From a virus: DNA of 64,000 nucleotides. The position numbers and the translations under genes were made by a program. The notes beneath the pieces were generated by a model. It searched no databases, was not told where the DNA came from, and saw only the letters and a program-made list of their open reading frames with translations. Positions 27,145 through 64,000 of this stretch are shown here, in pieces. Positions within the stretch are counted from its first letter, which is position 1; every line of letters starts with the position of its first letter. The DNA lies in the IMG/VR virus record IMGVR_UViG_3300028392_000060, positions 1 to 64,000 of that record; one strand, given 5' to 3'.

Positions 27145-27207
27145 AATTTTGATTTTAAAACAATCAGTATGATACACTTAAGATCTTAATCTAAAAAACC
27201 TAGGAGC

Positions 27208-42798: not shown

Positions 42799-42799
42799 T

Positions 42800-46860: not shown

Positions 46861-47199
46861 ATGAGCAAAATGAAAGTAACACCTATTGATGAGGTAAATT
46901 GGGGTCTATACGCCTGGATGATGCCAGATGAAACACTTGTTATGGATGAAGAAGGTGGATATTTAAGTATTCCTTCTATGAAAGGCGATATCCGTCAAAT
47001 AAAAAAACTTAAAGATGCAGCAAAGCACTACGGCTTAGAGGATGGTCATCCAGTATTTTTTGCGGGGCATAGACCAGTAGACAATGAAGAACTTGAAACG
47101 CAAAAACAAAGAATGGAATTGGGTCTTGTACCAGATGTTATGGACACTCCAGCAATGCTTGAATATTATAAAGAAATGAAAGAGATGAAAATTGGCTAA
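46861..47199 (+). CDS. conserved hypothetical protein preceding portal, leaderless
   Basis: TGG-TATTAT ends 6 nt before the ATG. Confidence 0.75.
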   Translation: MSKMKVTPIDEVNWGLYAWMMPDETLVMDEEGGYLSIPSMKGDIRQIKKLKDAAKHYGLEDGHPVFFAGHRPVDNEELETQKQRMELGLVPDVMDTPAMLEYYKEMKEMKIG

Positions 47200-48772
47200 T
47201 TTAACTATAGATGACAGTATTGACGATGATGAGAGTGGAATTACAGTTAAGTTAGATGCTCCATCTCATACAGTAGAGCATGATTTTAATGATCCATTTA
47301 ATGCTCCGTGGGAAGATATTAGAAAAGCAGAAGGTTTAAGTCCTAATTTTCGCAGACAAGCATCAAGACTTGAAAAGTCATTTGTGGGGCAGGGTGATGC
47401 AAAATCTAAAAAGCTTGATCCACTTGATTTAACAGGTTATTCTTTATTCCAAATTGTTCAACCACCATACAATGTTCTTTACTTAGCACAATTATATGAT
47501 GTGTCTCCATATCATCATTCTGCTGTTAATGCTAAAGCAGCAAATGTCGTGGGTTTAGGATATAAATTTGAAAATACATGGAGCACAACTTCTAAAATTG
47601 AAGAAGTTATGGATACTCCAAAAAAACTTGATAAGCTACGTTCAAAAATTGAGGGGTTAAAAGAACAGTTAAGAAACTATTTAGAATCACTTAATTCAGA
47701 TGATTCATTTACAGAAACAATGAAAAAGATTTTTATTGATTTAGAATCAACTGGTAATGCATACATGGAAGTTGGTCGGATGACAAATGGAAAGATTGGT
47801 TATATTGGCCATGTTCCTACAACCACTATGCGTATCCGCCGTCATCGTGATGGTTTTGTACAAGTTGTTTATAACCGCTATACATTTTTTAGAAACTTTG
47901 GAGATACTGAAACTCCAGATCAAATAGGTACAGATCCACAACCAAATGAAATAATTCATTTTAAAGTATTTACTCCTTCAAATACATATTATGGAGTGCC
48001 AGATGTTCTTTCTGCAAAAAATGCAGTTGCAGGAGATGAATTTGCACAGCGTTTTAACTTAGATTATTTTGAAAATAAAGCTGTTCCACGTTATATTATT
48101 ACAGTAAAGGGAGCAAAACTTACTGCTGATTCAGAGCGTAAATTGCTTGAATTTTTTCAAACAGGATTAAAGGGAAGAAATCATAGAACTCTTTATATTC
48201 CATTGCCTTCAGATGGAGAACAAGGTCGTGTTGAGTTTAATATGGAACCAATTGAAGCTGGTATTCAAGACTCATCATTTAGAAATTATGCTGTAGAAAA
48301 TAGAGATCGTATTCTTCTTTCTCATCGGGTTCCAGTATCAAAGCTGGGAATGCCAGCAAATGTATCATTGGCAAATGCTAAAGATGCAGATAAAACATTT
48401 AAAGAACAAGTTTGTCGTCCACGTCAAGAAGAACTTGAGTTTAAAATTAATTTGATTATTAGAGAATTTACAGATGCATTTGTTTTAAGATTTAATGAAC
48501 TTGCACTTACAGATGAAGAAACTCAATCACGAATTGATGATCGTTATCTTAAAGATCAAGTTATTACTCCTAACGAAGTTCGTCAACGTCGTGGAATGGC
48601 TCCCCTTGAAGGCGGAGATGCGGTTCTTGTTCTTAATCCAAAACAACTACAAGATGCAGCCTCTGATGCAAGTGGAAATAAAACTCGTGATCAAAATAGA
48701 ACTTTAAATGCTCCAGATAAGATGGGAACTGCCCGTAATGCTAAGGGCGAAGGACGGCAAGAAGGAAATTAA
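47192..48772 (+). CDS. portal protein
   Basis: PPYN, TGNAYMEV, EIIHFK, YYGVP, YFENKAVP, HRVP, TPNEVR..RG..P..GGD. Confidence 0.92.
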   Translation: MANLTIDDSIDDDESGITVKLDAPSHTVEHDFNDPFNAPWEDIRKAEGLSPNFRRQASRLEKSFVGQGDAKSKKLDPLDLTGYSLFQIVQPPYNVLYLAQLYDVSPYHHSAVNAKAANVVGLGYKFENTWSTTSKIEEVMDTPKKLDKLRSKIEGLKEQLRNYLESLNSDDSFTETMKKIFIDLESTGNAYMEVGRMTNGKIGYIGHVPTTTMRIRRHRDGFVQVVYNRYTFFRNFGDTETPDQIGTDPQPNEIIHFKVFTPSNTYYGVPDVLSAKNAVAGDEFAQRFNLDYFENKAVPRYIITVKGAKLTADSERKLLEFFQTGLKGRNHRTLYIPLPSDGEQGRVEFNMEPIEAGIQDSSFRNYAVENRDRILLSHRVPVSKLGMPANVSLANAKDADKTFKEQVCRPRQEELEFKINLIIREFTDAFVLRFNELALTDEETQSRIDDRYLKDQVITPNEVRQRRGMAPLEGGDAVLVLNPKQLQDAASDASGNKTRDQNRTLNAPDKMGTARNAKGEGRQEGN

Positions 48773-48774
48773 AA

Positions 48775-49641
48775 ATGGCAACAGGACTAGATGTTTTAAA
48801 TGTTGCCAGAACACAAATAGGCTTTGTTGAAGGCCCAAATAATGAAAGTCCTTATGGAACATGGTTTGGAATCCCAAATCAACCTTATTGCGCTATGGGA
48901 ATTAGTTGGTGTTTTGCACAAGTTGGTTTATCACATTTAGTTGCGGGACAAACAATAAAGGGATTTGCTTCTTGTCAAGTTGGGTTAAGTTGGTTTCAAC
49001 GTCAAGGTAAAGTTGTAAACAAATTTCAAGGACAACCAGGAGATATTGTATTTTTTTCATTTTCAAATAACGGTCAGGCAGACCACGTAGAACTTCTTGA
49101 AGCGGCTTCTCCAAATGGAATAACAACTATTGGATTTAATACAAGCCCAGATCATGTAGATGGAAGCCAAAGCAATGGCGGTGGCTGTTATAGAAGACAT
49201 AGGCCGTATTTAAATGTTATTGCAATAGTAAGACCAGCCTATCCAGTATTGCTTAAACCAACAATTGCAGTTTCTAAAACTAAAAAAGCAACTGCAGGTG
49301 TTGCAACAACTGGAGCTTTAGTTGCGGGAGCAACAGGAGCAGTAACAACTGGACCTACATCTAGTTCACCTACTCCCACCCCCAGCCCTACTGTATGGGC
49401 CGCACCACCGTTTCCAATAGATAAAACTTCTTTTATAATTGGTGCAAAAAGTGATGCAGTATTGGCAGTAGAAATGGCTTTAGCAAAATCGGGTTTATTG
49501 CCTACAGAATATGTTGATGCTTTAATGGATGCACACACTGTATCTGCTTTAAAGAAATATGAAATTAAAAACCCTAAACTTGGCATCAAAGATGGGTCTG
49601 TAAATCAAAAAGTTTATGATGCATTAAAGGCAACAATATGA
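48775..49641 (+). CDS. endolysin (CHAP domain plus peptidoglycan-binding domain)
   Basis: QPYCAMGISW, PGDIVFF, DHVEL; Pro/Thr linker; C-terminal PGBD-like helices. Confidence 0.8.
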   Translation: MATGLDVLNVARTQIGFVEGPNNESPYGTWFGIPNQPYCAMGISWCFAQVGLSHLVAGQTIKGFASCQVGLSWFQRQGKVVNKFQGQPGDIVFFSFSNNGQADHVELLEAASPNGITTIGFNTSPDHVDGSQSNGGGCYRRHRPYLNVIAIVRPAYPVLLKPTIAVSKTKKATAGVATTGALVAGATGAVTTGPTSSSPTPTPSPTVWAAPPFPIDKTSFIIGAKSDAVLAVEMALAKSGLLPTEYVDALMDAHTVSALKKYEIKNPKLGIKDGSVNQKVYDALKATI

Positions 49642-49988
49642 AGTTAAAACATCATTTTAAGTTTAATATATCAGATGCAAAACAGCTTGGAATCGCTCTT
49701 ATAAGCTCGTATGGAATGTGGGCAGCTACTGGGTTTCAAAAAAGCATTACAGGCTTAATGTATCCAATAATGGGGTTTGTTACTGGAGGTTTGGCTTCCC
49801 ACCATAGCACCTCTAGTCCAAATATTTTGCCAGAAAATCATATTGAAACCCCTTATGTAAACAATATAAATGATGGAAATAAAGGGTCTCCAATGACAAA
49901 TACAGAAATAAAAACATATGCTCCCGAAGTTGCGGATGTAAAAAAAGTCATTAAAATAAACAGCAATATTATAAAAAATATTAGTTAA
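49638..49988 (+). CDS. holin-like membrane protein
   Basis: Two short hydrophobic segments directly after the lysin. Confidence 0.45.
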   Translation: MKLKHHFKFNISDAKQLGIALISSYGMWAATGFQKSITGLMYPIMGFVTGGLASHHSTSSPNILPENHIETPYVNNINDGNKGSPMTNTEIKTYAPEVADVKKVIKINSNIIKNIS

Positions 49989-50030
49989 AATTATGAGTTA
50001 GTTATAAATCCTGCTATTATTTATTTACAT

Positions 50031-51467
50031 ATGGATATTCAAAAAACTTATTGGTCAAACAGCGAATCATCTATGGCTCTGGCTTTTCCTATTTCTAAGG
50101 TTAATAAGGAAAAGAGAACAGTCTCAGGTTTTGCATCCCTGGACAATTTAGATCGTCATGGAGATATTGTAACATCAGAAGCAAACAAAAAAGCTTTTGA
50201 AAGATTTAGAGGAAATATTCGTGAAATGCACGGACCAGTGGCAGTTGGTAAAATGCTTAATTTTAAAGAAGACAATTTTTTTGATCCAGAAACAAATAAA
50301 AAATATAATGGTATTTATGTAACTGCTTATATTTCAAAGGGCGCCCAAGATGCTTGGGAAAAAGTTCTTGATGGAACATATTCAGGATTTTCAATTGGTG
50401 GAAATATTGTTGATGCTAAAATGGAAAAATCTGATGATGGTTCAAATAAAGATCGCAGAGTAATTCATGATTATGATTTACATGAACTATCGCTAGTAGA
50501 TTCTCCAGCAAATCAACTTGCAAACTTTTTTTCTATTGAAAAAAATACAGATGGAAGTACTTTTGTAAAAGGTATGATTGCAGACGTTACATTAGAAAAT
50601 GTTTTTTGGTGTAAGCAAGATGAAATTGCTTCAACATCAAATGCAACAACAAAAGACTGCGTTGTATGCGATGCACAAATGATTAATATTGGTTGGGTAG
50701 AACAAGCAGATATTGAAAAGTTTGAAGCAATTGAAAAAGTAATTGATTCTTATTTTAAGAAAGATGATGCGCCAACATCAGCACATGAAGCAACAGAGAC
50801 AGCGTCTCCAGGTTTGGCGGGGAATGTAATTGATAGCAATGCTACAATTAATCTTTATCCCGATCAAAATAAAACAAAACAAAAAGTTACGTTTGATAAC
50901 GGACTTAAAAAGAGTGATGATATTTCACTCACAGAAGGAGGTAACAAAATGGCAGAAGATACAAATGCAGCAATTGAGAAGTCAATTGATGTAGAGACTC
51001 CAGCCGAAGAAGTTTCAATTGTTTCCGAAACTCCAGATGCTACACTTGAAAAAGCTGTAGAAATTTCAGAGGTTGAAGATACACTTGATTTAACAAAGAT
51101 GGTCACTGACCTCAAGACCTTCTTTGGTGAGTCTATTACAAAATCTAATGAGAACTATGCTACACACGCAGCAACAGTTCAAGATATGTACAACATTGTT
51201 AACGAAACTAGAGCTGAAATGGCTCGTTTGTCAAAGGGATATGAGGATATCTCAAAGTCAAATGAAGAAATCGTTGCAAAGTATGAAGCATTAAATAAGT
51301 CAGTAACTGATATGTTCGGAAAAATTGAGTATGTTGATCATGCTTTAAAGAACTTTGAAGCAGCTACTGCAGTACAGAAGTCCGTTGGGGTACAAGCTCC
51401 AATGGGTCAAACAAAACCAAAACAAAGTGTATGGCAAGGTGCTTTCCTCAGTGCTTCAAACATATAA
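50031..51467 (+). CDS. prohead protease fused to scaffold; internal scaffold start at 50949
   Basis: VSGFAS...DRHGD, REMH, GFSIGG, ELSLVDSPAN; internal SD GGAGGT plus in-frame ATG. Confidence 0.88.
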   Translation: MDIQKTYWSNSESSMALAFPISKVNKEKRTVSGFASLDNLDRHGDIVTSEANKKAFERFRGNIREMHGPVAVGKMLNFKEDNFFDPETNKKYNGIYVTAYISKGAQDAWEKVLDGTYSGFSIGGNIVDAKMEKSDDGSNKDRRVIHDYDLHELSLVDSPANQLANFFSIEKNTDGSTFVKGMIADVTLENVFWCKQDEIASTSNATTKDCVVCDAQMINIGWVEQADIEKFEAIEKVIDSYFKKDDAPTSAHEATETASPGLAGNVIDSNATINLYPDQNKTKQKVTFDNGLKKSDDISLTEGGNKMAEDTNAAIEKSIDVETPAEEVSIVSETPDATLEKAVEISEVEDTLDLTKMVTDLKTFFGESITKSNENYATHAATVQDMYNIVNETRAEMARLSKGYEDISKSNEEIVAKYEALNKSVTDMFGKIEYVDHALKNFEAATAVQKSVGVQAPMGQTKPKQSVWQGAFLSASNI

Positions 51468-51501
51468 AAAAATATAAAAAAACAAGGTGGTGAAATAATA
51501 A

Positions 51502-52650
51502 ATGAGTAATGAACTTCTACAAAAAGTCATTGATACAACAAATCTTGGTTCTTCAGCTGTTAACGCTTCTGGCGATTCATCTAACCTCTCTGGTAATGGT
51601 TTACTATATCCAGATCAGGCTAATCGTTTCCTAGATTACATGTGGGATGCTACGATTCTTGCTAAGGCAGCTCGTACAATCCGTATGCGTTCAAACACAA
51701 CCGAAATTGATCGTGTTGCAGTTGGACAACGTATCATGACAGTTGCACAGGAAGATAATCCACGTAATTTCGTGGCAAGTGGAGATAGCTATACAAATGC
51801 TAATTCTACAACTTTCTCTGCACAAAATGCAACATTCAACAAGGTTTCGCTTACTACTCGTAAGCTACGTCTTGACTGGGAACTTTCAGCAGAATCTCTA
51901 GAAGATAACGTTGAGGGTCCAGATCTTGAAGATCACATTGCACGTCTTATGGCTACCCAAGCTGGTAACGATATTGAGGATACCCTTATTAACGGTACTG
52001 GTTCTGGTAGTGGTTTGATGTCAGCATTTGCAGGCTTCCGTTCACTAGCATTAAGCAACGCACACGTTGTTGATGCTGCTGGATATGGACTTGACAAAAC
52101 AATTTTCAACCAAGCAATTAAGACTTTGCCTCGTAAGTACAAGCAACGTCGTAACCAACTACGTTTCTTCACAGGATCTAACTTGGTACAGGACTACTTG
52201 TTCAACTTGACAGCCAACGCTGGTAACGGAAACCCATTTGATATCGCTTCAGGTATCATTCGTGGTGATGTTGCTGCTAACGATGGTGGTCCAGGCACAG
52301 TAACTCCGTTTGCCTTTGGCATTCCAGTTATCAACGTTCCTTTGATTGATGAGACTCGTGCGGGAGATTATTCTTCTCCTTCAGGATCACACGGTGATGT
52401 CCACTTGACATTCCCACAAAACTTCATTATTGGTATCAAGCGTGATGTAACAGTCTATCGTTTGTTCCAGCCAAAGAAGGACACAATTGAATACACTCTA
52501 TTCATTCGTGTCGGTTGCGTAATGGAAAACTACGATGCACACGTTATCGTTAAAAACGTTAAGGTTGCAGGTTCAGTATCTAGCATTACATTTGGAACTC
52601 CATATAATGGTTCAAATGTAACTGGTGGAACTAACGGAAATACATACTAA
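51502..52650 (+). CDS. major capsid protein (HK97 fold)
   Basis: GLLYPDQANRF, LEDNVEG, NDIEDTLING; position after protease; strong codon bias. Confidence 0.92.
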   Translation: MSNELLQKVIDTTNLGSSAVNASGDSSNLSGNGLLYPDQANRFLDYMWDATILAKAARTIRMRSNTTEIDRVAVGQRIMTVAQEDNPRNFVASGDSYTNANSTTFSAQNATFNKVSLTTRKLRLDWELSAESLEDNVEGPDLEDHIARLMATQAGNDIEDTLINGTGSGSGLMSAFAGFRSLALSNAHVVDAAGYGLDKTIFNQAIKTLPRKYKQRRNQLRFFTGSNLVQDYLFNLTANAGNGNPFDIASGIIRGDVAANDGGPGTVTPFAFGIPVINVPLIDETRAGDYSSPSGSHGDVHLTFPQNFIIGIKRDVTVYRLFQPKKDTIEYTLFIRVGCVMENYDAHVIVKNVKVAGSVSSITFGTPYNGSNVTGGTNGNTY

Positions 52651-52668
52651 TTTTTAATTAGTTGCAAG

Positions 52669-52698
52669 CGTAAGGGAGATAGAAATATCTCCCTTACG
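52669..52698 (+). terminator. intrinsic terminator after capsid gene
   Basis: CGTAAGGGAGATA/TATCTCCCTTACG stem then ATTTT. Confidence 0.8.
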
Positions 52699-52737
52699 TA
52701 TTTTCTGATATAATAAACAATGACGAGAGGAAGTCAA

Positions 52738-53136
52738 ATGTCATTTACAGATCTAAAAATTACAGAATTAAGAAAAGTTGCAGATTCTTTTGCTATTGAT
52801 GCTAAAGAATTAAAAACAAAACAAGAAATTATTGCAATTCTTGAAGAAGAAGGAATTAGCTATCAAATGTATGCTAAGTTTAATAAAGCTGAAAAAGAAG
52901 AAATTAAAGTTCCTGAAAATGAAAAGAAAAAGAGAGAGCAAAAAATTATGAAAACAGCAAATCAGATTTTAGTAAGAATGGTTAGAGATAATCATTCATA
53001 TCAAACAGGTGGATATGAATTTACACAAGAACATCCATTTGTTGCCATGTCAGAAACAGATGCTCAAAGAATTTTTGATACTCAAGAGGGATTTCGCATA
53101 GCGACCCCTAGAGAAGCTCAAGAATACTACGCATAA
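52738..53136 (+). CDS. hypothetical protein with Rho-N/HeH-like N-terminus
   Basis: LKITELRKVA...TKQEII; SD GAGGA before 52738. Confidence 0.6.
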   Translation: MSFTDLKITELRKVADSFAIDAKELKTKQEIIAILEEEGISYQMYAKFNKAEKEEIKVPENEKKKREQKIMKTANQILVRMVRDNHSYQTGGYEFTQEHPFVAMSETDAQRIFDTQEGFRIATPREAQEYYA

Positions 53137-53159
53137 AAAATAAATAGGGGGTGTTGTAA

Positions 53160-54116
53160 TTGCAAACAATCAACACAAATAGTCAAGTAAAGATTTATCT
53201 GCGAGTATACAAAGATGGAGTTCTATCTCAAGTAGATTCTGCAACAAATCCTACTTTATCAATTTTTAATGCTGATAGCGATACAAATGCAATTACAAAT
53301 TTTTCATCTTTAAATTCTATTAATGAAGCCCCTTCAGGAGTATATTCTTATCTTTTAACCCCCGCTATAACTAATATAAACAGAATCTTAGAAGTAAGAT
53401 GGTCTTATATCATTGGCGGGGTTACAACAACTCAAACAGATTATTATCAAGTTGAAACTCCATATGCTACAATTTCAGAAGTTGTTGATTTTCTTCAATT
53501 TGGGTCAGATCCAGCAAGTTTAAATTATGTTGACTCAAACAGTATAATCAATGCAGAAAAAGTCGCCAGAACCATCGTAGAGGGCTATACAGGTATAAAA
53601 TTTTATACATACTATGGAAGTCAAGAAGCTCATGCAATTGGCGCTAATACAATTCAATTAACAGAAAAAATGTTAACAGTTGATAAAATGTATGAAAATC
53701 AAATTCTTGTATATGATGGAACGCAAAACCCTGTATACGATACATTTGGTTACAATACGGAAATCAGTCCTAGCGGATATCAATTAAGAATTTGGTACCC
53801 CGCCTTCCCTACTGGCTGGAATAATGAAATGGATCCTACTATTTATGAAGCGGGACGTTTTAGGGATAATTATCTTTATAAATTTGTAGGGCAAATTGGT
53901 TATAAGTATGTTCCAGAAGATATTAAATTGGCGACTATGCTTTTAATCAATGATGTTCTTTCAAATGATTACAATTGGAGGAATAAATATTTGTCAAAAG
54001 TTAACCTAAGCGAAATTTCATTTGAAATGGCTAAAGGTGCTTTTAATGGTACAGGAAATATTACAGTTGATAATATTCTTGATCAATATCGTAAAACAAA
54101 TATTGTTATCATTTAA
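53160..54116 (+). CDS. head-tail adaptor
   Basis: PYATISEV, ARTIVEGYTG, GYKYVPEDIKLA, VDNILDQYR. Confidence 0.75.
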   Translation: MQTINTNSQVKIYLRVYKDGVLSQVDSATNPTLSIFNADSDTNAITNFSSLNSINEAPSGVYSYLLTPAITNINRILEVRWSYIIGGVTTTQTDYYQVETPYATISEVVDFLQFGSDPASLNYVDSNSIINAEKVARTIVEGYTGIKFYTYYGSQEAHAIGANTIQLTEKMLTVDKMYENQILVYDGTQNPVYDTFGYNTEISPSGYQLRIWYPAFPTGWNNEMDPTIYEAGRFRDNYLYKFVGQIGYKYVPEDIKLATMLLINDVLSNDYNWRNKYLSKVNLSEISFEMAKGAFNGTGNITVDNILDQYRKTNIVII

Positions 54117-54574
54117 TGTTTAATAAAAATTATTCAAATTCATTTGTAGGGTCAGTTTTGAATATGTCTGCTGATATATATACACAACAAAATACACAAG
54201 ATCCAGATACGGGGGCTATAAAGCGTTCCTGGGTATATTCAAAAACTATACAATGTAAAATTTCTCCTGTTAAAATAAAAGGCGCCTCAACTAGAACCGA
54301 TAATAAAAGTTTTGGGAATACATCTGATTTAAATTATAATGAAAAAATACAACTAAAAATGTATTGTTTTGAATTATTAAGTAAGCGTTCACGCATTGAA
54401 AATATTCGTACAAGCAATAATGCTCCAATTTTTATTGAAATTGATAAAATAAATAATCCAGATACTAAGTTTGAAGTTACAGGCTCCCATGCTGTTATGG
54501 ACCCATTTGGAAAAATTGCTTATTACGAAACATCTCTTTTAAGAACCGAGTTACAAGATGACTCTCAAGCTTGA
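54116..54574 (+). CDS. head closure/stopper protein
   Basis: Size, synteny, QDPDTGAIKRSW. Confidence 0.6.
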   Translation: MFNKNYSNSFVGSVLNMSADIYTQQNTQDPDTGAIKRSWVYSKTIQCKISPVKIKGASTRTDNKSFGNTSDLNYNEKIQLKMYCFELLSKRSRIENIRTSNNAPIFIEIDKINNPDTKFEVTGSHAVMDPFGKIAYYETSLLRTELQDDSQA

Positions 54575-55277
54575 AATTGACACAAAACAATTAGTTAATG
54601 AACTTAGCGGTTTAGTTGTTGGGCTAGAAGAACTTACAAAGCCAACAGTATTATCTGAAATATCTAAAGCAGTATTTTCAATTACTGGAGAAAGATTTAT
54701 GTTGGCTGCCGATAATTATGCAAGATTAAATCCTAAAAAAATGCATCATGTTTATGAATGGGGCGGTATTGGTAGACCTACATCAAGACTTTTTGTTTTA
54801 GAAAGAAGTCAAATTATTTATGGAAATCTTATAATTTCTGCAAATTTTTTGCCATCTAGGATACCAGTTCCAATTAACCCTGAGTTGTTACAACCTGGCA
54901 GAACTGGGAAAATTGTATCTAGAAAAAATATATTTAGAAATAAAGCAGAAATTATGGAAAGAGGAACTCCTGTTTCTTTTTCTGCAAAAAGAGTATTAGC
55001 TTTTATGGGAAATGATGGAATAGCTTTTATATCACCAGGAACACAAGTTAACATTTTACATCCAGGTGGCATAAATACAACAAATTCATTTACAAAATAT
55101 TTAGTTGAATGGTATACTAAAAAGGGTAATGTTATAATGGAATCTTCTGGATTTTATGAAAAATTATCTAATAACGTAGCTTTAGCATTAAGTTCTAATA
55201 AACCTAATATTTCTACAGTACGTGCAGCAGTTACAAAAATTGTAAATCAAATTGATTTGGGAGTAATTATAAAATGA
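54558..55277 (+). CDS. neck/tail completion protein
   Basis: Synteny; HHVYEWG. Confidence 0.55.
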   Translation: MTLKLEIDTKQLVNELSGLVVGLEELTKPTVLSEISKAVFSITGERFMLAADNYARLNPKKMHHVYEWGGIGRPTSRLFVLERSQIIYGNLIISANFLPSRIPVPINPELLQPGRTGKIVSRKNIFRNKAEIMERGTPVSFSAKRVLAFMGNDGIAFISPGTQVNILHPGGINTTNSFTKYLVEWYTKKGNVIMESSGFYEKLSNNVALALSSNKPNISTVRAAVTKIVNQIDLGVIIK

Positions 55278-55801
55278 CAACAGATTATTCAAGAGTTGCG
55301 GTATTTGATGTAAGAAATGCTATGTGGGCATCTCTTCAAAGTGCGGGAATTTTAAATAGCAATGACTATATTGCAGAAGGCTTTACAACACCATTAATTC
55401 CAATTATTCCATCTCAACAAGTTCCAGAATTTAATAATTTATTACCAGGTAAAACATATATGACATACGATATAGTCCAAAAAAATTATGGCAGTCAATG
55501 GTGGATTTCAGAAGAAACCATGGTTATGCAAATAATTTCAAGAAGTAATTCTCAAATTCTTACAATAATTAATTTTCTTACAGACCTAGTTAGAAGATAT
55601 GAGCTTTCAGCAATTGATGTAAATTCTGCAGCTAGTTCTTCAGCAAGTCCATTTAAATTTCTTTATTTTAGGCTAGAATCAGCAAATCCCGTTCAACCTT
55701 TTATAGATGAAGGTGGATTTATGAGCGGGGACTTCGCATTTGTTTATACATATACCCGTCAAGTAGATGAAGGAATATCAAATACTGGTAAATATATCTA
55801 A
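55274..55801 (+). CDS. tail terminator
   Basis: Synteny directly upstream of the major tail gene. Confidence 0.55.
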   Translation: MTTDYSRVAVFDVRNAMWASLQSAGILNSNDYIAEGFTTPLIPIIPSQQVPEFNNLLPGKTYMTYDIVQKNYGSQWWISEETMVMQIISRSNSQILTIINFLTDLVRRYELSAIDVNSAASSSASPFKFLYFRLESANPVQPFIDEGGFMSGDFAFVYTYTRQVDEGISNTGKYI

Positions 55802-55900
55802 ATTTGACTTATTAGGTTTTAATGATATGATTTTACATGAGGAAGCAAGTTGTCATCTTCTTTTGTTTTAATAAAATAAATAAGGTGGTGAAATAAATAA

Positions 55901-56719
55901 ATGGCTACAAATACTAAAAACGTAATCGTTGGTGCCGCAGCACTCTTTACTAGCGTTGGAAACAGCTCTAATAATTCAGGTCGTCCATCAACAAACCAAG
56001 CAGCTCTTTCAGCTTTAATGCCAGCAAATACATCTGCTCGCACAGCACTTCTTAATTCAAACACAGGTGCTGGAATAGGATACCGTGAAGTTGGTTACAC
56101 AACTACTGGTATTGAAATTTCATACGAACCATCATATGGTGAAGTAATGGTTGATCAACTTCTTGATGCAGCTCGTATTTTTAAGCAAACTCTTAAGGTA
56201 ATGCTAAAAACAGAACTAACAGAAGCAACTCTTGAAAACATGCAGTTTTCATGGGGTCAAATGGATAGCGTATATGTTGCTAATGCTAATAACTCAGTTG
56301 TTAACGTTCCAACATTGCTTAATAATGATTCTGCTGTTAACAGCACACCAGATACTCCAGCAGCAACATTAAATATTGCAGCAGGTGCTTTAGGTGATGC
56401 TCCAGTAGAGCGTGTATTAATTGCAGTTGGACAAGCTCCAGCACAAATTGGTACATCAGCAGCATTTAATGATCCAGCAGCTACAGGTTCAACACCAGTA
56501 GTTTCAGTTGGAACAGGTGCAAATACTACTGTTGCTCGCAATAAAGAGCGTGTATATGTTGCACGTCGTGTTGTTTCAATTGATACAACAATGCATTCTT
56601 TGAAGCGTGATTCAGCAACTGTGTTCCCAGTGAACTTCCGTTGTTTGCCTGATTCAGATGGATCTTATGCAGGTTCAGAATACGGTGTCGTTATTGACCG
56701 CGTATACGGAACATTCTAA
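55901..56719 (+). CDS. major tail tube protein
   Basis: NVIVGAA, VGYTTTG, VDQLLD, TELTEATLEN, FPVNFRCLPD. Confidence 0.85.
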   Translation: MATNTKNVIVGAAALFTSVGNSSNNSGRPSTNQAALSALMPANTSARTALLNSNTGAGIGYREVGYTTTGIEISYEPSYGEVMVDQLLDAARIFKQTLKVMLKTELTEATLENMQFSWGQMDSVYVANANNSVVNVPTLLNNDSAVNSTPDTPAATLNIAAGALGDAPVERVLIAVGQAPAQIGTSAAFNDPAATGSTPVVSVGTGANTTVARNKERVYVARRVVSIDTTMHSLKRDSATVFPVNFRCLPDSDGSYAGSEYGVVIDRVYGTF

Positions 56720-56736
56720 AAAAACTTAATATATAT

Positions 56737-56769
56737 TTCAGACCCCTGCCGAAAGGCGGGGGTTCTGAG
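56737..56769 (+). terminator. intrinsic terminator
   Basis: CCCCTGCC-GAAA-GGCGGGGG GNRA hairpin. Confidence 0.7.
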
Positions 56770-56824
56770 TTTGTTTATACTAATATTCTTGGTATAATTT
56801 AATTAATAACAAAGGAGCAATAAA

Positions 56825-57160
56825 TTGGCAACAACCGTATATGATGTAGTAGAAATTGAATTAAGTGATGGATCAACACTTACACTAAAGCCATTGCCTA
56901 TAAAGCAATTAAGAAAATTTATGGATATTGTAAATTCCATGTCAGTTGATGAAGGTAAAAGTGAATTAGATGCCATGGATCTTTTTGTAGATGCAGCAAT
57001 AATTTGCTTGCAAGGACTTGGAAGACCAGACCTTTCAGATAAAGATAAATTTGAAGATGTAATAGAAGTTCCTACTATGATGAAAATTCTTGAAGTTGCT
57101 GGTGGTTTAAAGTTGACTGACCCAAACCTTCTGGGAGCGGCTCTAGTTGGGACGAACTAG
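56825..57160 (+). CDS. tail assembly chaperone (gpG-like)
   Basis: Between major tail and tape measure genes; SD AAGGAG, TTG start. Confidence 0.8.
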   Translation: MATTVYDVVEIELSDGSTLTLKPLPIKQLRKFMDIVNSMSVDEGKSELDAMDLFVDAAIICLQGLGRPDLSDKDKFEDVIEVPTMMKILEVAGGLKLTDPNLLGAALVGTN

Positions 57161-57432
57161 ACCTAAGCTCCTTGGAGTCTGAAGTTTTTCTTGCAGGTCA
57201 TTGGAAGAATTTTGATGAGCTGGAAGAAAGTCTTTCTATCAATGAACTTAATGCTTTAGTAAAAGCTTTAAGAGAAAAAGAAGAAAGAAGTATGAAGTTT
57301 CATGCAGCAATTAATGGCGTTGATCTTGAAGAAAAAGAGCCAGAAGATGTTGCGGTACTTAAGAGTTCAAGTATAGCATCAAAAGAAGGTTTCGGTGTTG
57401 GCGAAGGACTCGGCTTTATGTCACAAGAATAA
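57121..57432 (+). CDS. -1 frameshift extension of the tail chaperone (gpGT-like)
   Basis: Slippery C CCA AAC at 57121-57127 in the correct phase; -1 frame reads PSGSGSSWDELDLSSLESEVFL... to 57432. Confidence 0.8.
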   Translation, partial: PKPSGSGSSWDELDLSSLESEVFLAGHWKNFDELEESLSINELNALVKALREKEERSMKFHAAINGVDLEEKEPEDVAVLKSSSIASKEGFGVGEGLGFMSQE

Positions 57433-57447
57433 TGGAGTAGATAATTA

Positions 57448-60400
57448 ATGGCAAAAATAGAATTAAATATAGTTGCCCTTGGTGATTTTTCCGCAGTCAA
57501 TGCACAAATAAAAGCTCTTCAAGTACAAGTTGATTCACTTAATAAAGGCGTCGCTGGTGTTGGATTAGGATCAACACTAACTAAAGATTTAGCTAACGCA
57601 CAAGCAGCATTTAAATCAACAATGCTATCAACTGGACAGTTTACAATGCAAACTGTTAAAATGGCTTCTGAAACAGAAAAATTTGGAAGAGCGCTTACTT
57701 CAGGTAAATTAAAACTTTCAGAGTATTTTAATATAATAACTGGAAAAGCAGGTCAAGCAACAGCATCAATGAATGCTCTTGCTGAATCACAAATAAGATT
57801 ACAAAATTCTGTTGTTGTTAGAAACAAAAATGGATTTTTAGATGTTTATACACCAACTGCATTTAATAAAGTTGCACAGGCTGAAGAACTTGTAGCAATG
57901 AAAGCTATGGTAATGCAAAAGGCTATTGATGGTGGATCAATGGCACTTATTAATTTTGGTAAAAATACGCAATGGGCAGGACGACAGCTTACTGTTGGTT
58001 TAACAATGCCTATGGTTTTGTTTGGTGCAGCAGCAGTTAAATCTTTTAAAGAAACAAATATTGAATTAACAAGATTACAAAGACTTTATGGAGAAGGTTT
58101 AACACCACCATCTCAAACACAAATTAATCAAATTTCAAGTCAAGTCTTAAAACTTGGAACGACCATAGCACAAACAATGGGAATAGCTCAAACCGAAACA
58201 GTTAAAGCAGCAGCAAATTTTGCAGCTATGGGTCGGGAAGGACAAAATCTTATTGATACAACGGCACAAACAATGCGTCTATCAAAATTAGGAGCAGTAA
58301 GTACAGCAGATGCAACAAATACTGTTGTTGCTTTACAAAATGTTTATAAGGTAAGTACAAATGATTTAGCAACTGCAGTTAACTTTTTATCAGATATACA
58401 GAAGCAAACAACAATGACTTTAAATGATATGACACAAGCTATTCCACGTGTTGGTCCAATTATGCAACAACTCGGAGGAACATATAAAGATACTGCAGTT
58501 ATGCTTGTTGCAATGCGTGAATCAGGTATTCCTGCTGCACAAGCTGCTAACGCAATAAAATCTGCAATGGCATCTATAATTGCTCCAACTTCAGCAGCTA
58601 CTAGAGAATTTGCTAAATTTGGAATTAATTTAGATTCTATAAAAAATGCTGGTGGACCAGTACAAATGATAGAACAATTACAAGCAGGACTTTCAAAATT
58701 ATCTCCACTTGTTAGAGAACAACTTATTGAAAAATTATTTGGTAAATTTCAATTTGCTCGTGTATCAGCACTTATTGAAAACTTTGGTAAAGCGGGAAGT
58801 CAAACAGTAAATGCTCTTAAAATTGCAGGAGCAACATCAAATCAATTAGCAGTACTTGCAAATCAAGAAATGAAACAAGCAACAGAATCTACAACAGCTA
58901 AATGGCAAAGATCGTTAGAAGGATTTAAAGCAACATTATATCCAATTGGACAAAAATTTCTTGAAATGGGAACAATAATTTTAAATGTTGCAAATAAAAT
59001 TGGACATGCATTTAGTAGCTTACCATCACCATTAAAAGGATTTTTTGGATTTTTAGCAATAGGAGCAGCATTAGCGGGACCTCTTATTATGTTAACTGGA
59101 TTATTATCAAATTTTGCGGGGTATTTGTTAAAAGCTGGAGGATTTATATTAAAACTAGCTAATGGTGGAATGTCACTAAAAGAATTACTTACTCCCGAAA
59201 TTATTGCATCTCAAAAAGCAGCAGAACTATTTTCAAATCAAATAGTTAATGATGTAGATGCTGTTGATCTATTAAATCAAGCAATTGAAAGACTTACAAT
59301 ATCATTATCTGAAATGTCTGGTGCTATGGTTACGGGTACAGGTGATGTAGCTACTAAAGTTGCAGCAGCAAATGCTTTAAATATAAAACCTGGAAAAGAA
59401 ATGTATGGAGCTATGTCTGGAGCAGAATACCGATATCTATCTTCAATGGGACTTGCAGGAACAAATACTCTTTATAAATCAGGAACTTCAATAGGGCAAA
59501 AACCAAAATTTTTAAATGTTCCTGAAAATGAAGCTATCTATGCTAAACCAACTACAGGAATTTTTGCTAAAACTGATACGGGAGTAAGCAATACAGCATT
59601 AACTGGAGCTGGAGTAGAGCCAAGAGCATATTTAGCAGCAGCAGCAGGAGCAACAGGAGCAGATGTTTTAAGTAAAGAGTATGCAACAAAATATAAAACT
59701 AGCACAAGTTTATTTTTAGATGCATTAACAAAACAAACAGTAACCTTAGAAAATGGAACAAAAGTACAATTATTAAATGATGAAAAAGCAAATATGCTTA
59801 AAGCACAACTTAATAAAGAGCTTGAAACACAAGTACTTGGTTTGGAAAAAATTAATGACATAAATAATCCTTTGGCAGCAGTTGAAAAACAAATTCTTGC
59901 AAAACTAGAAGAAGAAGGAATGTTAATAGGATTAAGTATAGAACAAACTAGAGAATTAATTAATCAAATAAGATTTGGAATGAGTAATGTTCACGATATT
60001 AACGCAGCAGGGGGAGCTGGTGCTTGGCTTGGAGGAGGAAATACTGGACTTTCTAGGTTTAAATTAGATTTTACAGGTTTAAAAAGTCAAAATATAGAAT
60101 TTTGGCATGCATTTAATGCTGAAGCAAAAGCAGCCTGGGAAGCAGTTCTTGTTGATATGCGTGGTGCGGGTGCACAGATTATAGAATATCAAGGTGAATT
60201 AGGAAAAGATGCAGCACTAAAATTTACAGAATCTGAAATTGAAATGTTAAGAAAATTAAATCCAGAACTATTATCACAATCTGTAATATTAGAAGAAGAA
60301 GTTGGAAAAGCAAGAGCTGATATGGCTGCTGCATCAGGAAAACTAGTTGCTAAAATATTTTCAGAATCTGAAATTGCAACATTAAAACAGGTATATCCAA

Positions 60401-63400
60401 GTATATTGACGGCTACAGTATTAAATGAAGAAGAAATTGCAAATGCTAAAATAGCTATACAAGAATCTACGTTAGCAAAAGAAAAAATAATTGCTGAAGA
60501 AGAAATTGCAGTACGTAGTGGGATGCTTGGTCGTTTGGGTGGTCGTTTAGGTGTAGGCACTGGAAAACCAAGCGGCATGGGCGCTATGGGCATTGCAATG
60601 GCTGGCATGATGATTGGTATGCCAATGTCTAGTAGTAAAAATCAAGCAGTAAGTACGGCGGGATCAGGAATTATGATGGGTGCTAATGCCGCAATGATAG
60701 CTTCATTTTTGCCTATAGCACCAGAATTAATAATTCCAATAGCGTTAGCTGTTGGAGGACTTACTGTAGCTTATAAAGCTCTTTCTAAAGTTATGGCTGA
60801 TCAAAAAGCACATAATGATGCCATAGAAGCATCATTTAAATCATCATCAAGTGTTATATCAGCATACGGCGGAACAATGATTACTGCAAAACAAGCAGTA
60901 TATAACTTTATTGATGCTAACAAAGAATCAAAAGATGTATTAAGTAAAACAGCACAAGATGTTGCTGAAATTAAAAAATTAGGAACATCTGATCCATTAA
61001 AACAAGTTGGAGAATTATTAAAAGGCGGGACTACGGCAAGTGGAGTTATAGGAACATTAAATCAATTTGCTGCAGCACAAGTAGCAAATGGTATGGATCC
61101 AAAAGCTGTATCTCAAATGGTTACAGATTTATTAACATATTCTGGACAAACAAAATATCTTAATCAAGCATTAAAAGAAATTACAAATAATACAAAAGAC
61201 ATGTCTACTGCTACTGCAACAATGATTAATAAATTAAAAAATAATGGAGATGCAAATCTTATTACTGCAACAACTTATAAAGATTTGTCTAAAGCACAAA
61301 AAGCATTTGCTGATGGATTGCTTACAACAACAAATATAATATCTGATCAAGCCACTCCATTTCAAGTTGCAGCAGATAAAATTAAAGCTTTGCGAGATAC
61401 TTCAGATAATAGTATAGGTTCTGTAAACGCCCTAGCTTTAGCATTAAAAAATGCGGGGGCATCTGCAGAAACTCTTACTGCAATGGCTAATTTAGCTAAA
61501 ATAGGTGTTACTAATTTAGGTGAAATTTCAACAATATTAATGCTTAATGCCGCAGGAATTAAAGTTAATACAACAGATGCTACAAAAACTACTAAAGATG
61601 TTACAAATGGTATTGTAGAATATGTTAAACAAAAACAAAAAGCATTAATAGCAGCTGATAAAGATGCTTTAAAAATTGAAGAAAATAAAGTTGTTGCAGC
61701 TAAAAAAGCTGCAGAAACTGCTGCAAAAACTGCTACAACTAAACAATTAAAAAATGAACAAGCGGCTTTAGGAATAGAAGGCGCAAAACAATATGAAACA
61801 GATCAAAAACAAGTAAAAGTATTAGAAGCACAATTAGCAACATTAAAATTACAAACTTCAGAATTACAAAAACAACAACAATATCAACTAAATCAACAAG
61901 ATTTAGAAAATCAAGCAAAACAAGCAGAAATGTCAGGAAATTATTTACAAGCAGCAATGCTTAATCAACAAAAAGCTTATAATACTTCACAATATAATCA
62001 AAATAATTCACAAGATGAATTACAAAAAGAATTAGATAATTTAAAACAAAGTCTTGCAGATCGTGCATTATTAATTCAAAATGAAACAGATAGTACATCT
62101 TCATCTACTGTTGATACATCAGGTGTGATTCTAGCTAAGCAAAAACTTAAGGATGATAAATTAATTGGAACACAATTAGCTTCTGAAATGACTACGTTAT
62201 TGGCTGACTCTGGTTTAACTGGATTTAAAGCAATGGTTGATGGTAAAGGTAATTATATAATTACAACTACAGGTAACGTAAATGTAAATGGAACATCAGA
62301 AAGAACATTGGGAAGTGCTTCTAATCCAATTTCGCTTTCAGGAAATATAGCCAACGATGAAAAAGTAGGTCGCAGTCCTTCTTCTGATTTGACACAATGG
62401 AATAGTCCATTAGGTAACACTAGATCAGTAGTTCATCAATATGCAAATGATAATAAAATAACTAAAAATCAATATTTTTCAATAGATCAGTATAATGTGC
62501 ATTATGTTTTTTATGAAGATGCAGATGGAAATATAACAATGATTTCTGCTGATGGAGCCTATAATGGGCCAAATACAATACTTAGATTACCAAAAAATGC
62601 TAATGTTACAAAGGCCAAAGCTGTAAAAAAAGCAACAGGTGGACATATATCTGGACCAGGAACGGGGACTTCAGATTCAATTCCCGCATATCTTTCAAAT
62701 GGCGAATATGTAATTAAAGCAGATGCTGTATCTCATTATGGACCAAGTTTTTTTGATTCTGTAAATGCAAAGAAATTTGCAAATGGTGGAGAAGTAACTA
62801 AAAATGGATGGCTTCAAAAATGGGCTAAGAGTTTAACTGGAATGCCTGCTGCAGAAATGTTTGGCACAGCATCAATATTAAGAAAGTTTGCGGGTCTTGG
62901 CAAACCTGGAGATAATCTAGCCACAGCTTTATTCCCGCTTAATTTTATGGGTATGGGCGGAGGAAAAAGTTTATTCCTTGGTATGCCTCGTGGCGTGAAA
63001 GATTTAGAAGAAGCACTTAAAGCTGAAAAAATAATGCAAGATATACACGCTTCTATTCAAGCAAGCAATTTTAAAAGCCTACCAATTACAAAACTAGGCG
63101 AACAGTTAGAGGCAACAGTTGGAAAAAGTTTTCCAGTAAGCGGTATTGGTGGGTTGTATAAAGGCGCTAATGGAACAAAAGAATTTGTCAAGCCAGTAAC
63201 AGATGCGTTATCTGGTCTATCTGAAATTAGATCTAATCAGATTGCAAGAGATGTACAAGGCTTAGATACACCAATTCAAGAATTAATAAAAATCATGGAC
63301 CCTTCAGATCCTAAAGGAAAGAGAACACTGTTAGCATTAAGATCTGCTTTTAACCCAGAATTTGCAAATCCAACTGGGAAGTTTACAAAAGATCAGTATT

Positions 63401-64000
63401 TTAGACAGTTAGTTTCTTCTTTATTAAGAGGAGATAAAGACTTACAAATAGCAAATTTATCAGGCAATAACCTTGTTGATGCTGGAACTTCAGGGGTATT
63501 TAACCTAGCTTCTGGAATAAGAACGTTATCTAAATCAATGCCGTCAATGCAAGAGCAAGCTACTATAAATTTATTAGGTGTTAAAGGTGGAGCAAAAAGA
63601 TTCTTTGCTGAATCTACAGCATCAATTGCAAAATCAATGACTCCAAAAGAATATCATGATGCAATTGTGGCAGAAATTAAAAGAGAAATTCCTTTATTAG
63701 AAAAAACAATAGCTTCATTTAAACTTACAGATCCAGATGAAATTGAAGCATATGCTAATATGTTGGAAAGATTAAAGGCGGGAGCAAAACCAGGAGTAGA
63801 TTGGTCATCATTCCAAACAATGGCAGCAAGCGTAGTTCCAGCTCCACCAAAAACACCAACAGCAGCAGCACTTGCTAAAAAAGCTGAAGAACTAACATTA
63901 AAGAAAAGACAATCTGGACATGCCGTAGGTTTTTCTGATATTATGTTTAAAGATCAACTTGGCGGGTATGCAAATGGTGGAGCAGTAAATTCAATGTCAA
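57448..64000 (+). CDS. tape measure protein (>2180 aa, runs off the window; absent from track)
   Basis: ATG at 57448 frame 1; NFGKNTQWAGRQLTVG, TMP core, hydrophobic segments, ATGGHISGPGTGTSDSIPAYLSNGEYV. Confidence 0.92.
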   Translation, partial: MAKIELNIVALGDFSAVNAQIKALQVQVDSLNKGVAGVGLGSTLTKDLANAQAAFKSTMLSTGQFTMQTVKMASETEKFGRALTSGKLKLSEYFNIITGKAGQATASMNALAESQIRLQNSVVVRNKNGFLDVYTPTAFNKVAQAEELVAMKAMVMQKAIDGGSMALINFGKNTQWAGRQLTVGLTMPMVLFGAAAVKSFKETNIELTRLQRLYGEGLTPPSQTQINQISSQVLKLGTTIAQTMGIAQTETVKAAANFAAMGREGQNLIDTTAQTMRLSKLGAVSTADATNTVVALQNVYKVSTNDLATAVNFLSDIQKQTTMTLNDMTQAIPRVGPIMQQLGGTYKDTAVMLVAMRESGIPAAQAANAIKSAMASIIAPTSAATREFAKFGINLDSIKNAGGPVQMIEQLQAGLSKLSPLVREQLIEKLFGKFQFARVSALIENFGKAGSQTVNALKIAGATSNQLAVLANQEMKQATESTTAKWQRSLEGFKATLYPIGQKFLEMGTIILNVANKIGHAFSSLPSPLKGFFGFLAIGAALAGPLIMLTGLLSNFAGYLLKAGGFILKLANGGMSLKELLTPEIIASQKAAELFSNQIVNDVDAVDLLNQAIERLTISLSEMSGAMVTGTGDVATKVAAANALNIKPGKEMYGAMSGAEYRYLSSMGLAGTNTLYKSGTSIGQKPKFLNVPENEAIYAKPTTGIFAKTDTGVSNTALTGAGVEPRAYLAAAAGATGADVLSKEYATKYKTSTSLFLDALTKQTVTLENGTKVQLLNDEKANMLKAQLNKELETQVLGLEKINDINNPLAAVEKQILAKLEEEGMLIGLSIEQTRELINQIRFGMSNVHDINAAGGAGAWLGGGNTGLSRFKLDFTGLKSQNIEFWHAFNAEAKAAWEAVLVDMRGAGAQIIEYQGELGKDAALKFTESEIEMLRKLNPELLSQSVILEEEVGKARADMAAASGKLVAKIFSESEIATLKQVYPSILTATVLNEEEIANAKIAIQESTLAKEKIIAEEEIAVRSGMLGRLGGRLGVGTGKPSGMGAMGIAMAGMMIGMPMSSSKNQAVSTAGSGIMMGANAAMIASFLPIAPELIIPIALAVGGLTVAYKALSKVMADQKAHNDAIEASFKSSSSVISAYGGTMITAKQAVYNFIDANKESKDVLSKTAQDVAEIKKLGTSDPLKQVGELLKGGTTASGVIGTLNQFAAAQVANGMDPKAVSQMVTDLLTYSGQTKYLNQALKEITNNTKDMSTATATMINKLKNNGDANLITATTYKDLSKAQKAFADGLLTTTNIISDQATPFQVAADKIKALRDTSDNSIGSVNALALALKNAGASAETLTAMANLAKIGVTNLGEISTILMLNAAGIKVNTTDATKTTKDVTNGIVEYVKQKQKALIAADKDALKIEENKVVAAKKAAETAAKTATTKQLKNEQAALGIEGAKQYETDQKQVKVLEAQLATLKLQTSELQKQQQYQLNQQDLENQAKQAEMSGNYLQAAMLNQQKAYNTSQYNQNNSQDELQKELDNLKQSLADRALLIQNETDSTSSSTVDTSGVILAKQKLKDDKLIGTQLASEMTTLLADSGLTGFKAMVDGKGNYIITTTGNVNVNGTSERTLGSASNPISLSGNIANDEKVGRSPSSDLTQWNSPLGNTRSVVHQYANDNKITKNQYFSIDQYNVHYVFYEDADGNITMISADGAYNGPNTILRLPKNANVTKAKAVKKATGGHISGPGTGTSDSIPAYLSNGEYVIKADAVSHYGPSFFDSVNAKKFANGGEVTKNGWLQKWAKSLTGMPAAEMFGTASILRKFAGLGKPGDNLATALFPLNFMGMGGGKSLFLGMPRGVKDLEEALKAEKIMQDIHASIQASNFKSLPITKLGEQLEATVGKSFPVSGIGGLYKGANGTKEFVKPVTDALSGLSEIRSNQIARDVQGLDTPIQELIKIMDPSDPKGKRTLLALRSAFNPEFANPTGKFTKDQYFRQLVSSLLRGDKDLQIANLSGNNLVDAGTSGVFNLASGIRTLSKSMPSMQEQATINLLGVKGGAKRFFAESTASIAKSMTPKEYHDAIVAEIKREIPLLEKTIASFKLTDPDEIEAYANMLERLKAGAKPGVDWSSFQTMAASVVPAPPKTPTAAALAKKAEELTLKKRQSGHAVGFSDIMFKDQLGGYANGGAVNSMS

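Follow-up and report, generated by a model that had tools for sequence, protein, structure and literature searches.

A kinase-like domain embedded in the tape measure proteins of uncultured siphoviruses

The tape measure gene and its embedded domain

We examined a window of 64,000 nucleotides, corresponding to bases 1-64,000 of the 73,470-bp linear IMG/VR virus record IMGVR_UViG_3300028392_000060 (estimated completeness 66%), and focused on a kinase-like globular domain encoded near its end, within the gene for the tape measure protein (TMP) of the phage tail. The TMP open reading frame (ORF) lies on the + strand (57448..64000); it encodes residues 1-2184 inside the window, and the gene goes on to base 65103 of the record, for a total of 2551 aa. 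PF10145 matches residues 233-432 (Pfam, E 3.2e-26), TIGR01760 matches residues 186-538 (NCBIfam, E 2.7e-23), and several TMP families of PHROGs match the N-terminal ~1500 residues, with phrog_10030 at E 2e-88. On the 5' side the gene is preceded by portal, protease, capsid, adaptor, Ig-domain tail tube protein and tail chaperone-like ORFs, and on the 3' side it is followed by minor tail proteins. Judged by its family profiles and gene position, ORF 57448-65103 is the TMP of an uncultured siphovirus.

A first-pass annotation, made from the nucleotide sequence of the window, had described a HipA/PI3-PI4-kinase-like domain embedded in the TMP between two A-x-G-G motifs. Every string that it quoted, including those between KFANGG (starting at 62773) and GYANGG (starting at 63964), is found in frame 1 of the + strand, in the place where it had been reported. 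Family search, residue conservation, AlphaFold2 (AF2) modeling and Foldseek comparison delimit the globular domain to 62977..63849 on the + strand, corresponding to TMP residues ~1844-2134. The proposal that a kinase-like domain is embedded in the TMP was borne out by the AF2 model, by matches to kinases in the PDB and by a conserved set of residues.

Residues conserved at kinase-like positions

We aligned the query with 124 homologues that cover the full-length domain (MAFFT, 125 rows). Mean pairwise identity in this alignment is 44.5% and the minimum is 22.7% (1500 sampled pairs). The Gly-rich loop, G-x-S-F-P...G-x-G-G-x-Y (63121..63159, + strand), includes the SGIGGLYKG region and lies between predicted strands 1 and 2 of the model; its residues G1892, S1894 and G1902 are conserved in 100% of the rows and Y1904 in 121/125 (97%). 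Downstream of it, Lys1915 (63190..63192, + strand), the predicted beta3 lysine, occurs in VFVKP within the string KEFVKP, and Glu1926 (63223..63225, + strand), the predicted alphaC glutamate, occurs in the ALAE.R motif of SEIRSNQIARDVQGLDTP. Both are invariant (125/125); in the model, the Lys falls on strand 82-88 and the Glu on helix 91-106. The catalytic-loop-like motif R-G-D-K-D-L-x-x-x-N (63427..63456, + strand), part of LLRGDKDLQIANL, is placed directly after helix 152-165 and comprises R1994 (121/125), D1996 (121/125), D1998 (63439; 124/125), L1999 (125/125) and N2003 (63454; 125/125). Eight residues after Asn2003 is the predicted metal-binding Asp of a D-x-G motif (NLVDAG; 63478..63486, + strand), in which D2011 is conserved in 125/125 and G2013 in 122/125 rows. 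The K/E/D/N/D set singled out in the first-pass annotation is therefore retained in the homologues, with D1998 alone departing from invariance, in a single row.

Columns conserved at 95% or more number 24 of the 320 in the alignment, and the probability that all five named columns fall among them by chance is 1.6e-6. A second alignment, restricted to the domain and made from 39 sequences of DNA loci, shows the same invariant residues. In one homologue of 863 aa (P0110) the catalytic-loop Asp is replaced by Val (R-G-D-K-V-L...N), while the Lys, Glu, Asn and D-x-G Asp are kept; P0110 may be an inactive variant. The suggestion that the His of the catalytic loop had been replaced by Gln did not hold, as position 2000 is variable (Ser in 50 rows, Gln in only 30/125, Gly in 20, Ala in 12).

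Several other blocks are invariant, namely G-x-S-F-P before the Gly loop, GL.aP.Q, DP.D, QLVAS, AGVF..ASG.R, PSM..QA.INLLGVKGGAK..FAEST, Y2102 and W2119, and for these we could name no kinase counterpart. The longest, PSM..QA.INLLGVKGGAK..FAEST (63541..63618, + strand; residues 2032-2057), is family-specific and belongs to the helical C-terminal half of the domain.

Predicted fold

AF2 was given a 320-aa query (TMP residues 1830-2149) together with an alignment of 50 sequences, and returned a model with a predicted local distance difference test score (pLDDT) of 92.2 and a predicted template modeling score (pTM) of 0.88. A single-sequence prediction of a 410-aa segment yielded no usable model (pLDDT 37.6). 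In the N-terminal half of the model, DSSP assigns a helix (21-42), three strands (56-60, 73-76 and 82-88, the last carrying the Lys), a helix with the Glu (91-106) and two further strands (115-121 and 131-138). The later part consists of a short helix (141-144), a helix at 152-165, the R-G-D-K-D-L-x-x-x-N loop (167-174), two 2-residue strands, D182-x-G184 and seven helices extending to residue 319. We take this order to be the beta1-beta2-beta3-alphaC-beta4-beta5-alphaD-alphaE-catalytic loop-beta7-beta8-DFG order of kinases. At the level of the fold, the model has the elements of the protein-kinase-like (PKL) superfamily: a five-stranded N-lobe with helix C, then helix E, the catalytic loop, a short hairpin and the metal-binding loop.

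When the model was compared with 350,542 PDB chains by Foldseek, 44 of the 45 matches listed (ranks 1-50) were named protein kinases or kinase complexes, including CtkA, AAK1, p38, WNK3, TNIK, GSK3, CDK9, RioK1 (4OTP), PknG (4Y0X) and BAK1. The title of the remaining match listed, 7cz2, does not say what the protein is. Against BFVD, Ser/Thr kinases of giant viruses are listed from rank 7 onward. The expectation of a kinase structure is thus upheld in part: the model is confident, its elements follow the kinase order and its PDB matches are mostly kinases, but the similarity is weak, the best match being Helicobacter pylori CtkA (3akk_C) at E 1.5e-3, with a probability of 0.97 and TM-scores of 0.32 (query-normalised) and 0.35 (target-normalised). 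TM-scores to PDB kinases are low overall (0.17-0.36) and root-mean-square deviations are high. On the model, the similarity to kinases would be real but remote, or the lobes may be set differently.

Distribution and conservation of the domain family

An exhaustive phmmer search with the 410-aa segment against 1.84 billion cluster representatives retrieved 185 representatives at E<=1e-3, 139 of them at E<=1e-30. The whole domain is covered in 124 of the 150 listed homologues, and nearly all of those listed are 1200-4468 aa long. A Pfam scan of three homologues found PF10145 and nothing else, and a profile search for longer relatives recovered nothing but TMPs, among them one under the name 'MAG: phage tail tape measure protein [Chitinophagia bacterium]' (MAG, metagenome-assembled genome). 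Within IMG/VR, a relative is encoded in 288/323 pattern-matching stretches. We examined 80 loci, consisting of 79 of the 80 kept IMG/VR loci and one MAG locus; the omitted locus (L055) has a match that is cut by the locus end. In all 80 the domain sits in a long open frame, and 57 of these frames are closed at both ends, with 1790-4557 codons from stop to stop. The position of the domain falls into three classes, at residue ~715-800, ~1300-1370 or ~1900-2800, and the TMP of the window belongs to the last.

No free-standing form was found by profile search, within the limits of the word-indexed tool used: the near-length matches are all on contigs of <=11 kb and look like fragments. In IMG/VR locus L079 (9119-10048), the domain begins only 58 codons after an in-frame stop and the contig ends soon after. 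This arrangement can be read as a split TMP, as a sequencing error or as the sole sign that the domain may also be encoded separately.

In a scan of 185,579 species genomes, the family was found at a single locus (L003); the contig, of 85 kb, comes from a MAG with the title 'uncultured Bifidobacterium sp.'. The frame at this locus has 3160 codons, with the domain at ~754, and the contig looks like a phage contig binned into the MAG rather than a prophage. Given one locus in so many species genomes, the family is not a common prophage feature. Searches with three different family members against 50,697 GenBank phage records gave no match. The family is abundant in uncultured phages and has no known cultured carrier.

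Compared per 100 aa with the three nearest TMPs (L004, L006 and L005), the module is 65-80% identical, whereas identity elsewhere is 14-48%, with ~45% in the PF10145 region. From these comparisons the module appears to behave as a mobile cassette, far better conserved than the TMP that surrounds it. The high identity of the module, together with the three position classes, suggests strong constraint on the cassette, its exchange among TMPs, or both.

Layout of the C-terminal part of the tape measure protein

Upstream of the kinase-like module the TMP has a motif of 'C-terminal type' with the D..PA.L..GE pattern, KKATGGHISGPGTGTSDSIPAYLSNGEYVIKADAV (62626..62730, + strand; residues 1727-1761). 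The first of the two bounding A-x-G-G motifs, FANGG (62776..62790, + strand; residues 1777-1781), is followed by a 58-60-aa 'leader', NGWLQKW...LFPLNF.G.G.G (62794..62973, + strand; residues 1783-1842), and then by the domain. The second, YANGG (63967..63981, + strand; residues 2174-2178), is followed by a second leader and a second module. This second leader copy (residues 2184-2245) lies mostly beyond the window and is 47% identical to the first (BLASTP, E 2e-11). A hidden Markov model (HMM) built from both copies has matches in 10/255 collected proteins, mostly close relatives in which the leader immediately precedes the kinase-like domain; two distant giant TMPs (P0008 and P0099) have it near the C-terminus instead. 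Our guess is that the leader interacts with the membrane or the tail tube.

The second cassette comprises TMP residues 2184-2551 (record bases 63997-65100), nearly all past the end of the window. It consists, in order, of the leader copy, a ~220-aa region (to residue ~2450) and a terminal HALGG...GERIIPAS motif. The ~220-aa region has no family match in Pfam, PHROGs or NCBIfam, and ESM Atlas look-ups of the domain segment and the second module gave only sub-0.9 scores, to unnamed viral clusters. Identity of the second cassette to its nearest relatives is only 18-32%, so the cargo varies there, unlike the kinase-like module.

The recurrence of A-x-G-G in the TMP, also pointed out in the first-pass annotation, is confirmed: there are 8 copies versus 2.3 expected, and 1/2000 shuffles reached 8. 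TMPs of the ~715-800 class have a D..PA.L..GE motif, usually after [FY]A.GG, 35-90 aa before the domain, often another ~15-50 aa after it and one more ~80-100 aa before the end of the TMP. The A-x-G-G and D..PA.L..GE motifs flank the domain in the clade of the TMP studied here too. A-x-G-G as a constant boundary of the domain was ruled out, as most TMPs of the ~1300 class lack the motifs in the vicinity of the domain. Their arrangement makes the two motifs look like repeated 'TMP end' elements placed between modules, and cleavage at them is possible. Giant TMPs (L010, L012, L045, L048, L049, L060, L062, L067, L070 and others) contain the TMP-ending motif [FY]A.GG ... D..PA.L..GE.V.P two or three times, in the interior or at the end, and look as if several TMP-like modules had been concatenated.

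An internal promoter or a separate start for the module is not indicated. Between 60000 and 64000 there are 14 promoter-like sites versus 15.8 expected, and the in-frame ATG nearest to a GGAGGA at about 62957 is ~19 nt downstream of it.

Proposed activity and alternative explanations

We think it probable, with moderate confidence, that residues ~1844-2134 form a folded PKL domain, most likely an active phosphotransferase, which is carried in the TMP and leaves the tail at infection to modify a host target early. The model would place the domain in the PKL superfamily at the level of the fold and in no named family. An active ATP-dependent phosphotransferase seems most likely, and not a pseudokinase, because the full set of predicted nucleotide-binding, metal-binding and catalytic residues is kept. 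Ejection of the TMP is established for model siphoviruses. In the mechanism that we propose, a few copies of the kinase-like domain would be built into each tail as part of the TMP, would leave the tail with it at infection and would refold at or inside the cytoplasmic membrane. The domain would then bind ATP and Mg and use host ATP for phosphate transfer, and a host target (candidates are a protein and an envelope or lipid precursor) would be modified before phage gene expression. Fusion to the TMP fits an enzyme, of which few catalytic molecules per virion would suffice.

A number of results weigh against this proposal. No kinase family, including HipA_C and PI3_PI4_kinase, matches the domain in Pfam at E<=1, and the Pkinase HMM (PF00069) finds nothing over the whole record at E<=10. 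NCBIfam and PHROGs have no family for the domain, and searches of PDB sequences by phmmer and with two profiles returned chance-level rows only. We built comparison alignments from genomes for 34 bacterial Pkinase domains and 29 HipA domains; hhalign of the domain family against the former was not significant (P 0.26). The His of the His-Arg-Asp (HRD) motif is not present, the motif being R-G-D-K-D-L, and the Asn-to-Asp distance is 8 residues in 110/110 members where the pattern matched, shorter than the 13-17 residues in 33 bacterial domains of the eukaryotic-type protein kinases (ePKs). In the Foldseek comparison no PDB chain matched at E<=1e-3, and the top of the BFVD ranking (E 2.4e-5 to 3.6e-4) is taken by large phage proteins that bear the labels ADP-ribosyltransferase (ART), portal or uncharacterised, not by kinases. 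The high conservation of the module could reflect recent exchange and not selection on activity. Finally, a folded domain of 290 aa should not fit in the tail tube, so that its storage in an unfolded state, or in the tip, would be required.

The last point bears on when the domain would act. An active kinase-like enzyme could work in the producing cell, where it would phosphorylate the TMP, tail assembly partners or host proteins late in infection and be a passenger in the virion. ATP is at hand where the TMP is made, a tail tube would not seem to have room for the folded domain, and the domain is found at 0.18-0.8 of the frame, so that nearness to the exiting C-terminal tip is not conserved. 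For late activity, however, a free-standing gene would do, yet the domain is embedded in all 80 loci examined, the near-length matches on short contigs look like fragments, and fusion to an ejected protein is the conserved feature. We regard action in the producing cell as unlikely.

In its element order, the domain resembles ePK-like and atypical PKL kinases (CtkA, RioK1 and PknG), with which it shares the Gly loop, the strand-3 Lys, the helix-C Glu, D-L-x-x-x-N after helix E, and D-x-G. Its Asp-to-Asn spacing of 5 equals that of the ePK motif D-L-K-P-x-N. Although not significant, the hhalign alignment with the ePK domains is still in register: the Gly loops are paired, as are FVK with AIK, D-L-x-x-x-N with D-I-K-P-A-N, and D-A-G with D-F-G. 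The differences from ePKs are a Lys-to-Glu distance of 11 residues (17 in the ePK seed used for hhalign), a long Gly loop, a family-specific helical C-terminal half, the missing HRD His and the lack of significant sequence similarity.

The narrower HipA/PI3K/PI4K assignment of the first-pass annotation proved unsupported. Beyond the absence of any Pfam match at E<=1, hhalign with the 29 HipA domains fell short of significance (P 0.17), its alignment shifting the Asn by one residue and leaving the metal-binding Asp out of register, the position of the supposed His is variable, and no HipA, PI3K or PI4K chain is among the 45 PDB matches listed. The likeness to HipA (PF07804) lies in the general PKL motif order, and in the hhalign alignment the Lys strand and the helix-C region (E....IA...GL) find plausible counterparts, but the loop of the TMP domain has no conserved His or conserved substitute for it. 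With PI3K/PI4K (PF00454) the domain has one labelled BFVD row in common, a haloarchaeal virus protein at rank 12 (E 4.4e-3) that is the sole row labelled 'PI3K/PI4K catalytic domain-containing'. Membership in this family is not supported, the loop being D-K-D-L-x-x-x-N instead of D-R-H-x-x-N and Pfam giving no match.

To our knowledge, the only catalytic modules known in TMPs are wall-degrading, and TMPs are usually seen as rulers and channel formers. Muralytic domains are embedded in T5 Pb2 and in the TMP of mycobacteriophage TM4. These are likewise catalytic modules in a TMP that are used at entry, but they act on peptidoglycan outside the cytoplasm and without ATP. Early action on host proteins, as proposed here, is known from the phage protein kinase T7 gp0.7, which acts at the start of infection; gp0.7 differs in being an early gene product and not part of the virion.

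A parallel in mode of delivery may be offered by the virion-delivered 'polyvalent proteins' of phages and plasmids, in which divergent domains of the Ser/Thr/Tyr-kinase superfamily have been predicted and an early modification of host proteins proposed as their role (Iyer, Burroughs, Anand, de Souza and Aravind, 2017; PMC5512222). As described in that paper, one clade of these kinases is without the whole C-terminal subdomain, has an insert between the conserved His and Asp and a conserved Gln on the last N-lobe strand, and is found mainly in (pro)phages of Verrucomicrobia-Chlamydia and Bacteroidetes, outside TMPs. Like the polyvalent-protein kinases so described, the TMP domain is a divergent kinase-like domain in a large multidomain protein predicted to enter with the invading DNA, and its best BFVD matches (ART and portal fusions) are large phage proteins of the general polyvalent kind. 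Compared with the clade by description only, it appears to differ in having no conserved His, a short loop free of such an insert and a helical C-terminal half, and in having a TMP as its carrier. Full-text literature searches brought up no earlier account of a TMP with a kinase-like domain. We consider the domain family to be new; its two ingredients, the kinase-like fold and TMP-borne enzyme modules, are each of a known kind. The family is missing from Pfam, NCBIfam and PHROGs, and naming it helps to annotate a large block of 'hypothetical' TMP sequence.

Some atypical enzymes with a kinase fold carry out AMPylation or glutamylation. The domain might combine a kinase-like fold with an activity other than that of a protein kinase: it could phosphorylate envelope precursors, as a kinase of small molecules, lipids or sugars, or catalyse another nucleotide-dependent transfer such as AMPylation or glutamylation, and would aid the TMP in crossing the envelope. 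This explanation draws on the C-terminal half, in which family-specific invariant blocks (INLLGVKGGAK..FAEST, Y2102 and W2119) are without kinase counterpart, on the low TM-scores to protein kinases, and on the absence of both the HRD His and an APE-like motif; cell-wall-directed zeta-toxin-like kinases fused to virion proteins, noted in PMC5512222, provide a precedent. Since the PDB matches listed are protein kinases and not aminoglycoside, choline or lipid kinases, although this may only mirror PDB content, we give such an enzyme just a small chance. Least probable is a structural or scaffolding role, in which the domain, as a pseudokinase or with a fold unlike that of kinases, might for instance fill the tail tip or bind the hub, and in which its kinase likeness is remote or a prediction artefact: the lack of any significant sequence or profile link to a kinase, the Foldseek E values against the PDB that are never below 1e-3 and the Val at the catalytic Asp of P0110 would suit it, but K, E, D, N and D, of which pseudokinases usually lose one or more, are all kept in at least 124/125 members at 44.5% mean identity, the five residues map to the right structural elements, and 44 of the 45 PDB matches listed are kinases.

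The preferred reading, that of a phosphotransferase injected with the TMP, can be tentatively extended to a wider proposal, to which we would give somewhat less than an even chance. The giant TMPs of a widespread group of uncultured siphoviruses may be effector carriers, with cassettes placed between copies of [FY]A.GG ... D..PA.L..GE. One such cassette would be a new active kinase family that is injected and phosphorylates a host target, in defence, transcription or translation, or envelope synthesis, before phage gene expression. If true, the tail would deliver a counterpart of T7 gp0.7 and of the polyvalent proteins that arrive from the capsid. A kinase-like module in TMPs would extend virion-delivered host-modifying enzymes to the tail lumen, and it raises the physical question of how a globular domain of 290 aa is stored in the tail tube and passes through it. 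With its predicted fold and residues, the module appears to offer a concrete candidate enzyme for testing.

Genomic context of the virus

The gene order around the TMP agrees with that of Streptomyces phage Blueeyedbeauty (Stanwilliamsviridae, 130 kb), namely portal-protease-capsid-tail tube-chaperones-TMP-minor tail. The protease is 43% identical to that of Blueeyedbeauty, and the first ~570 aa of the TMP are 27% identical (E 4e-57). Over a wider range, the genes at 26146-29145 and 47192-57432 of the window (glycosyltransferase, ribonucleotide reductase ... portal, protease, capsid, connector, Ig-domain tail tube, chaperones, TMP) parallel the order in the 130-kb Streptomyces phages of Stanwilliamsviridae (NC_048720.1). 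The G+C content of the window is only 33-38%, which suggests a distant relative with a different host.

Three tandem paralogous ORFs of 740-742 aa each (38351-45028, + strand) contain EPTP repeats (PF03736, E 1e-16 to 4e-9). They are placed between a 1390-aa ORF without a family (33545-37717) and the packaging and head genes. A DUF932 protein (PF06067, E 6.6e-56) is encoded on the - strand at 14068-15096, in a leftward early or accessory region.

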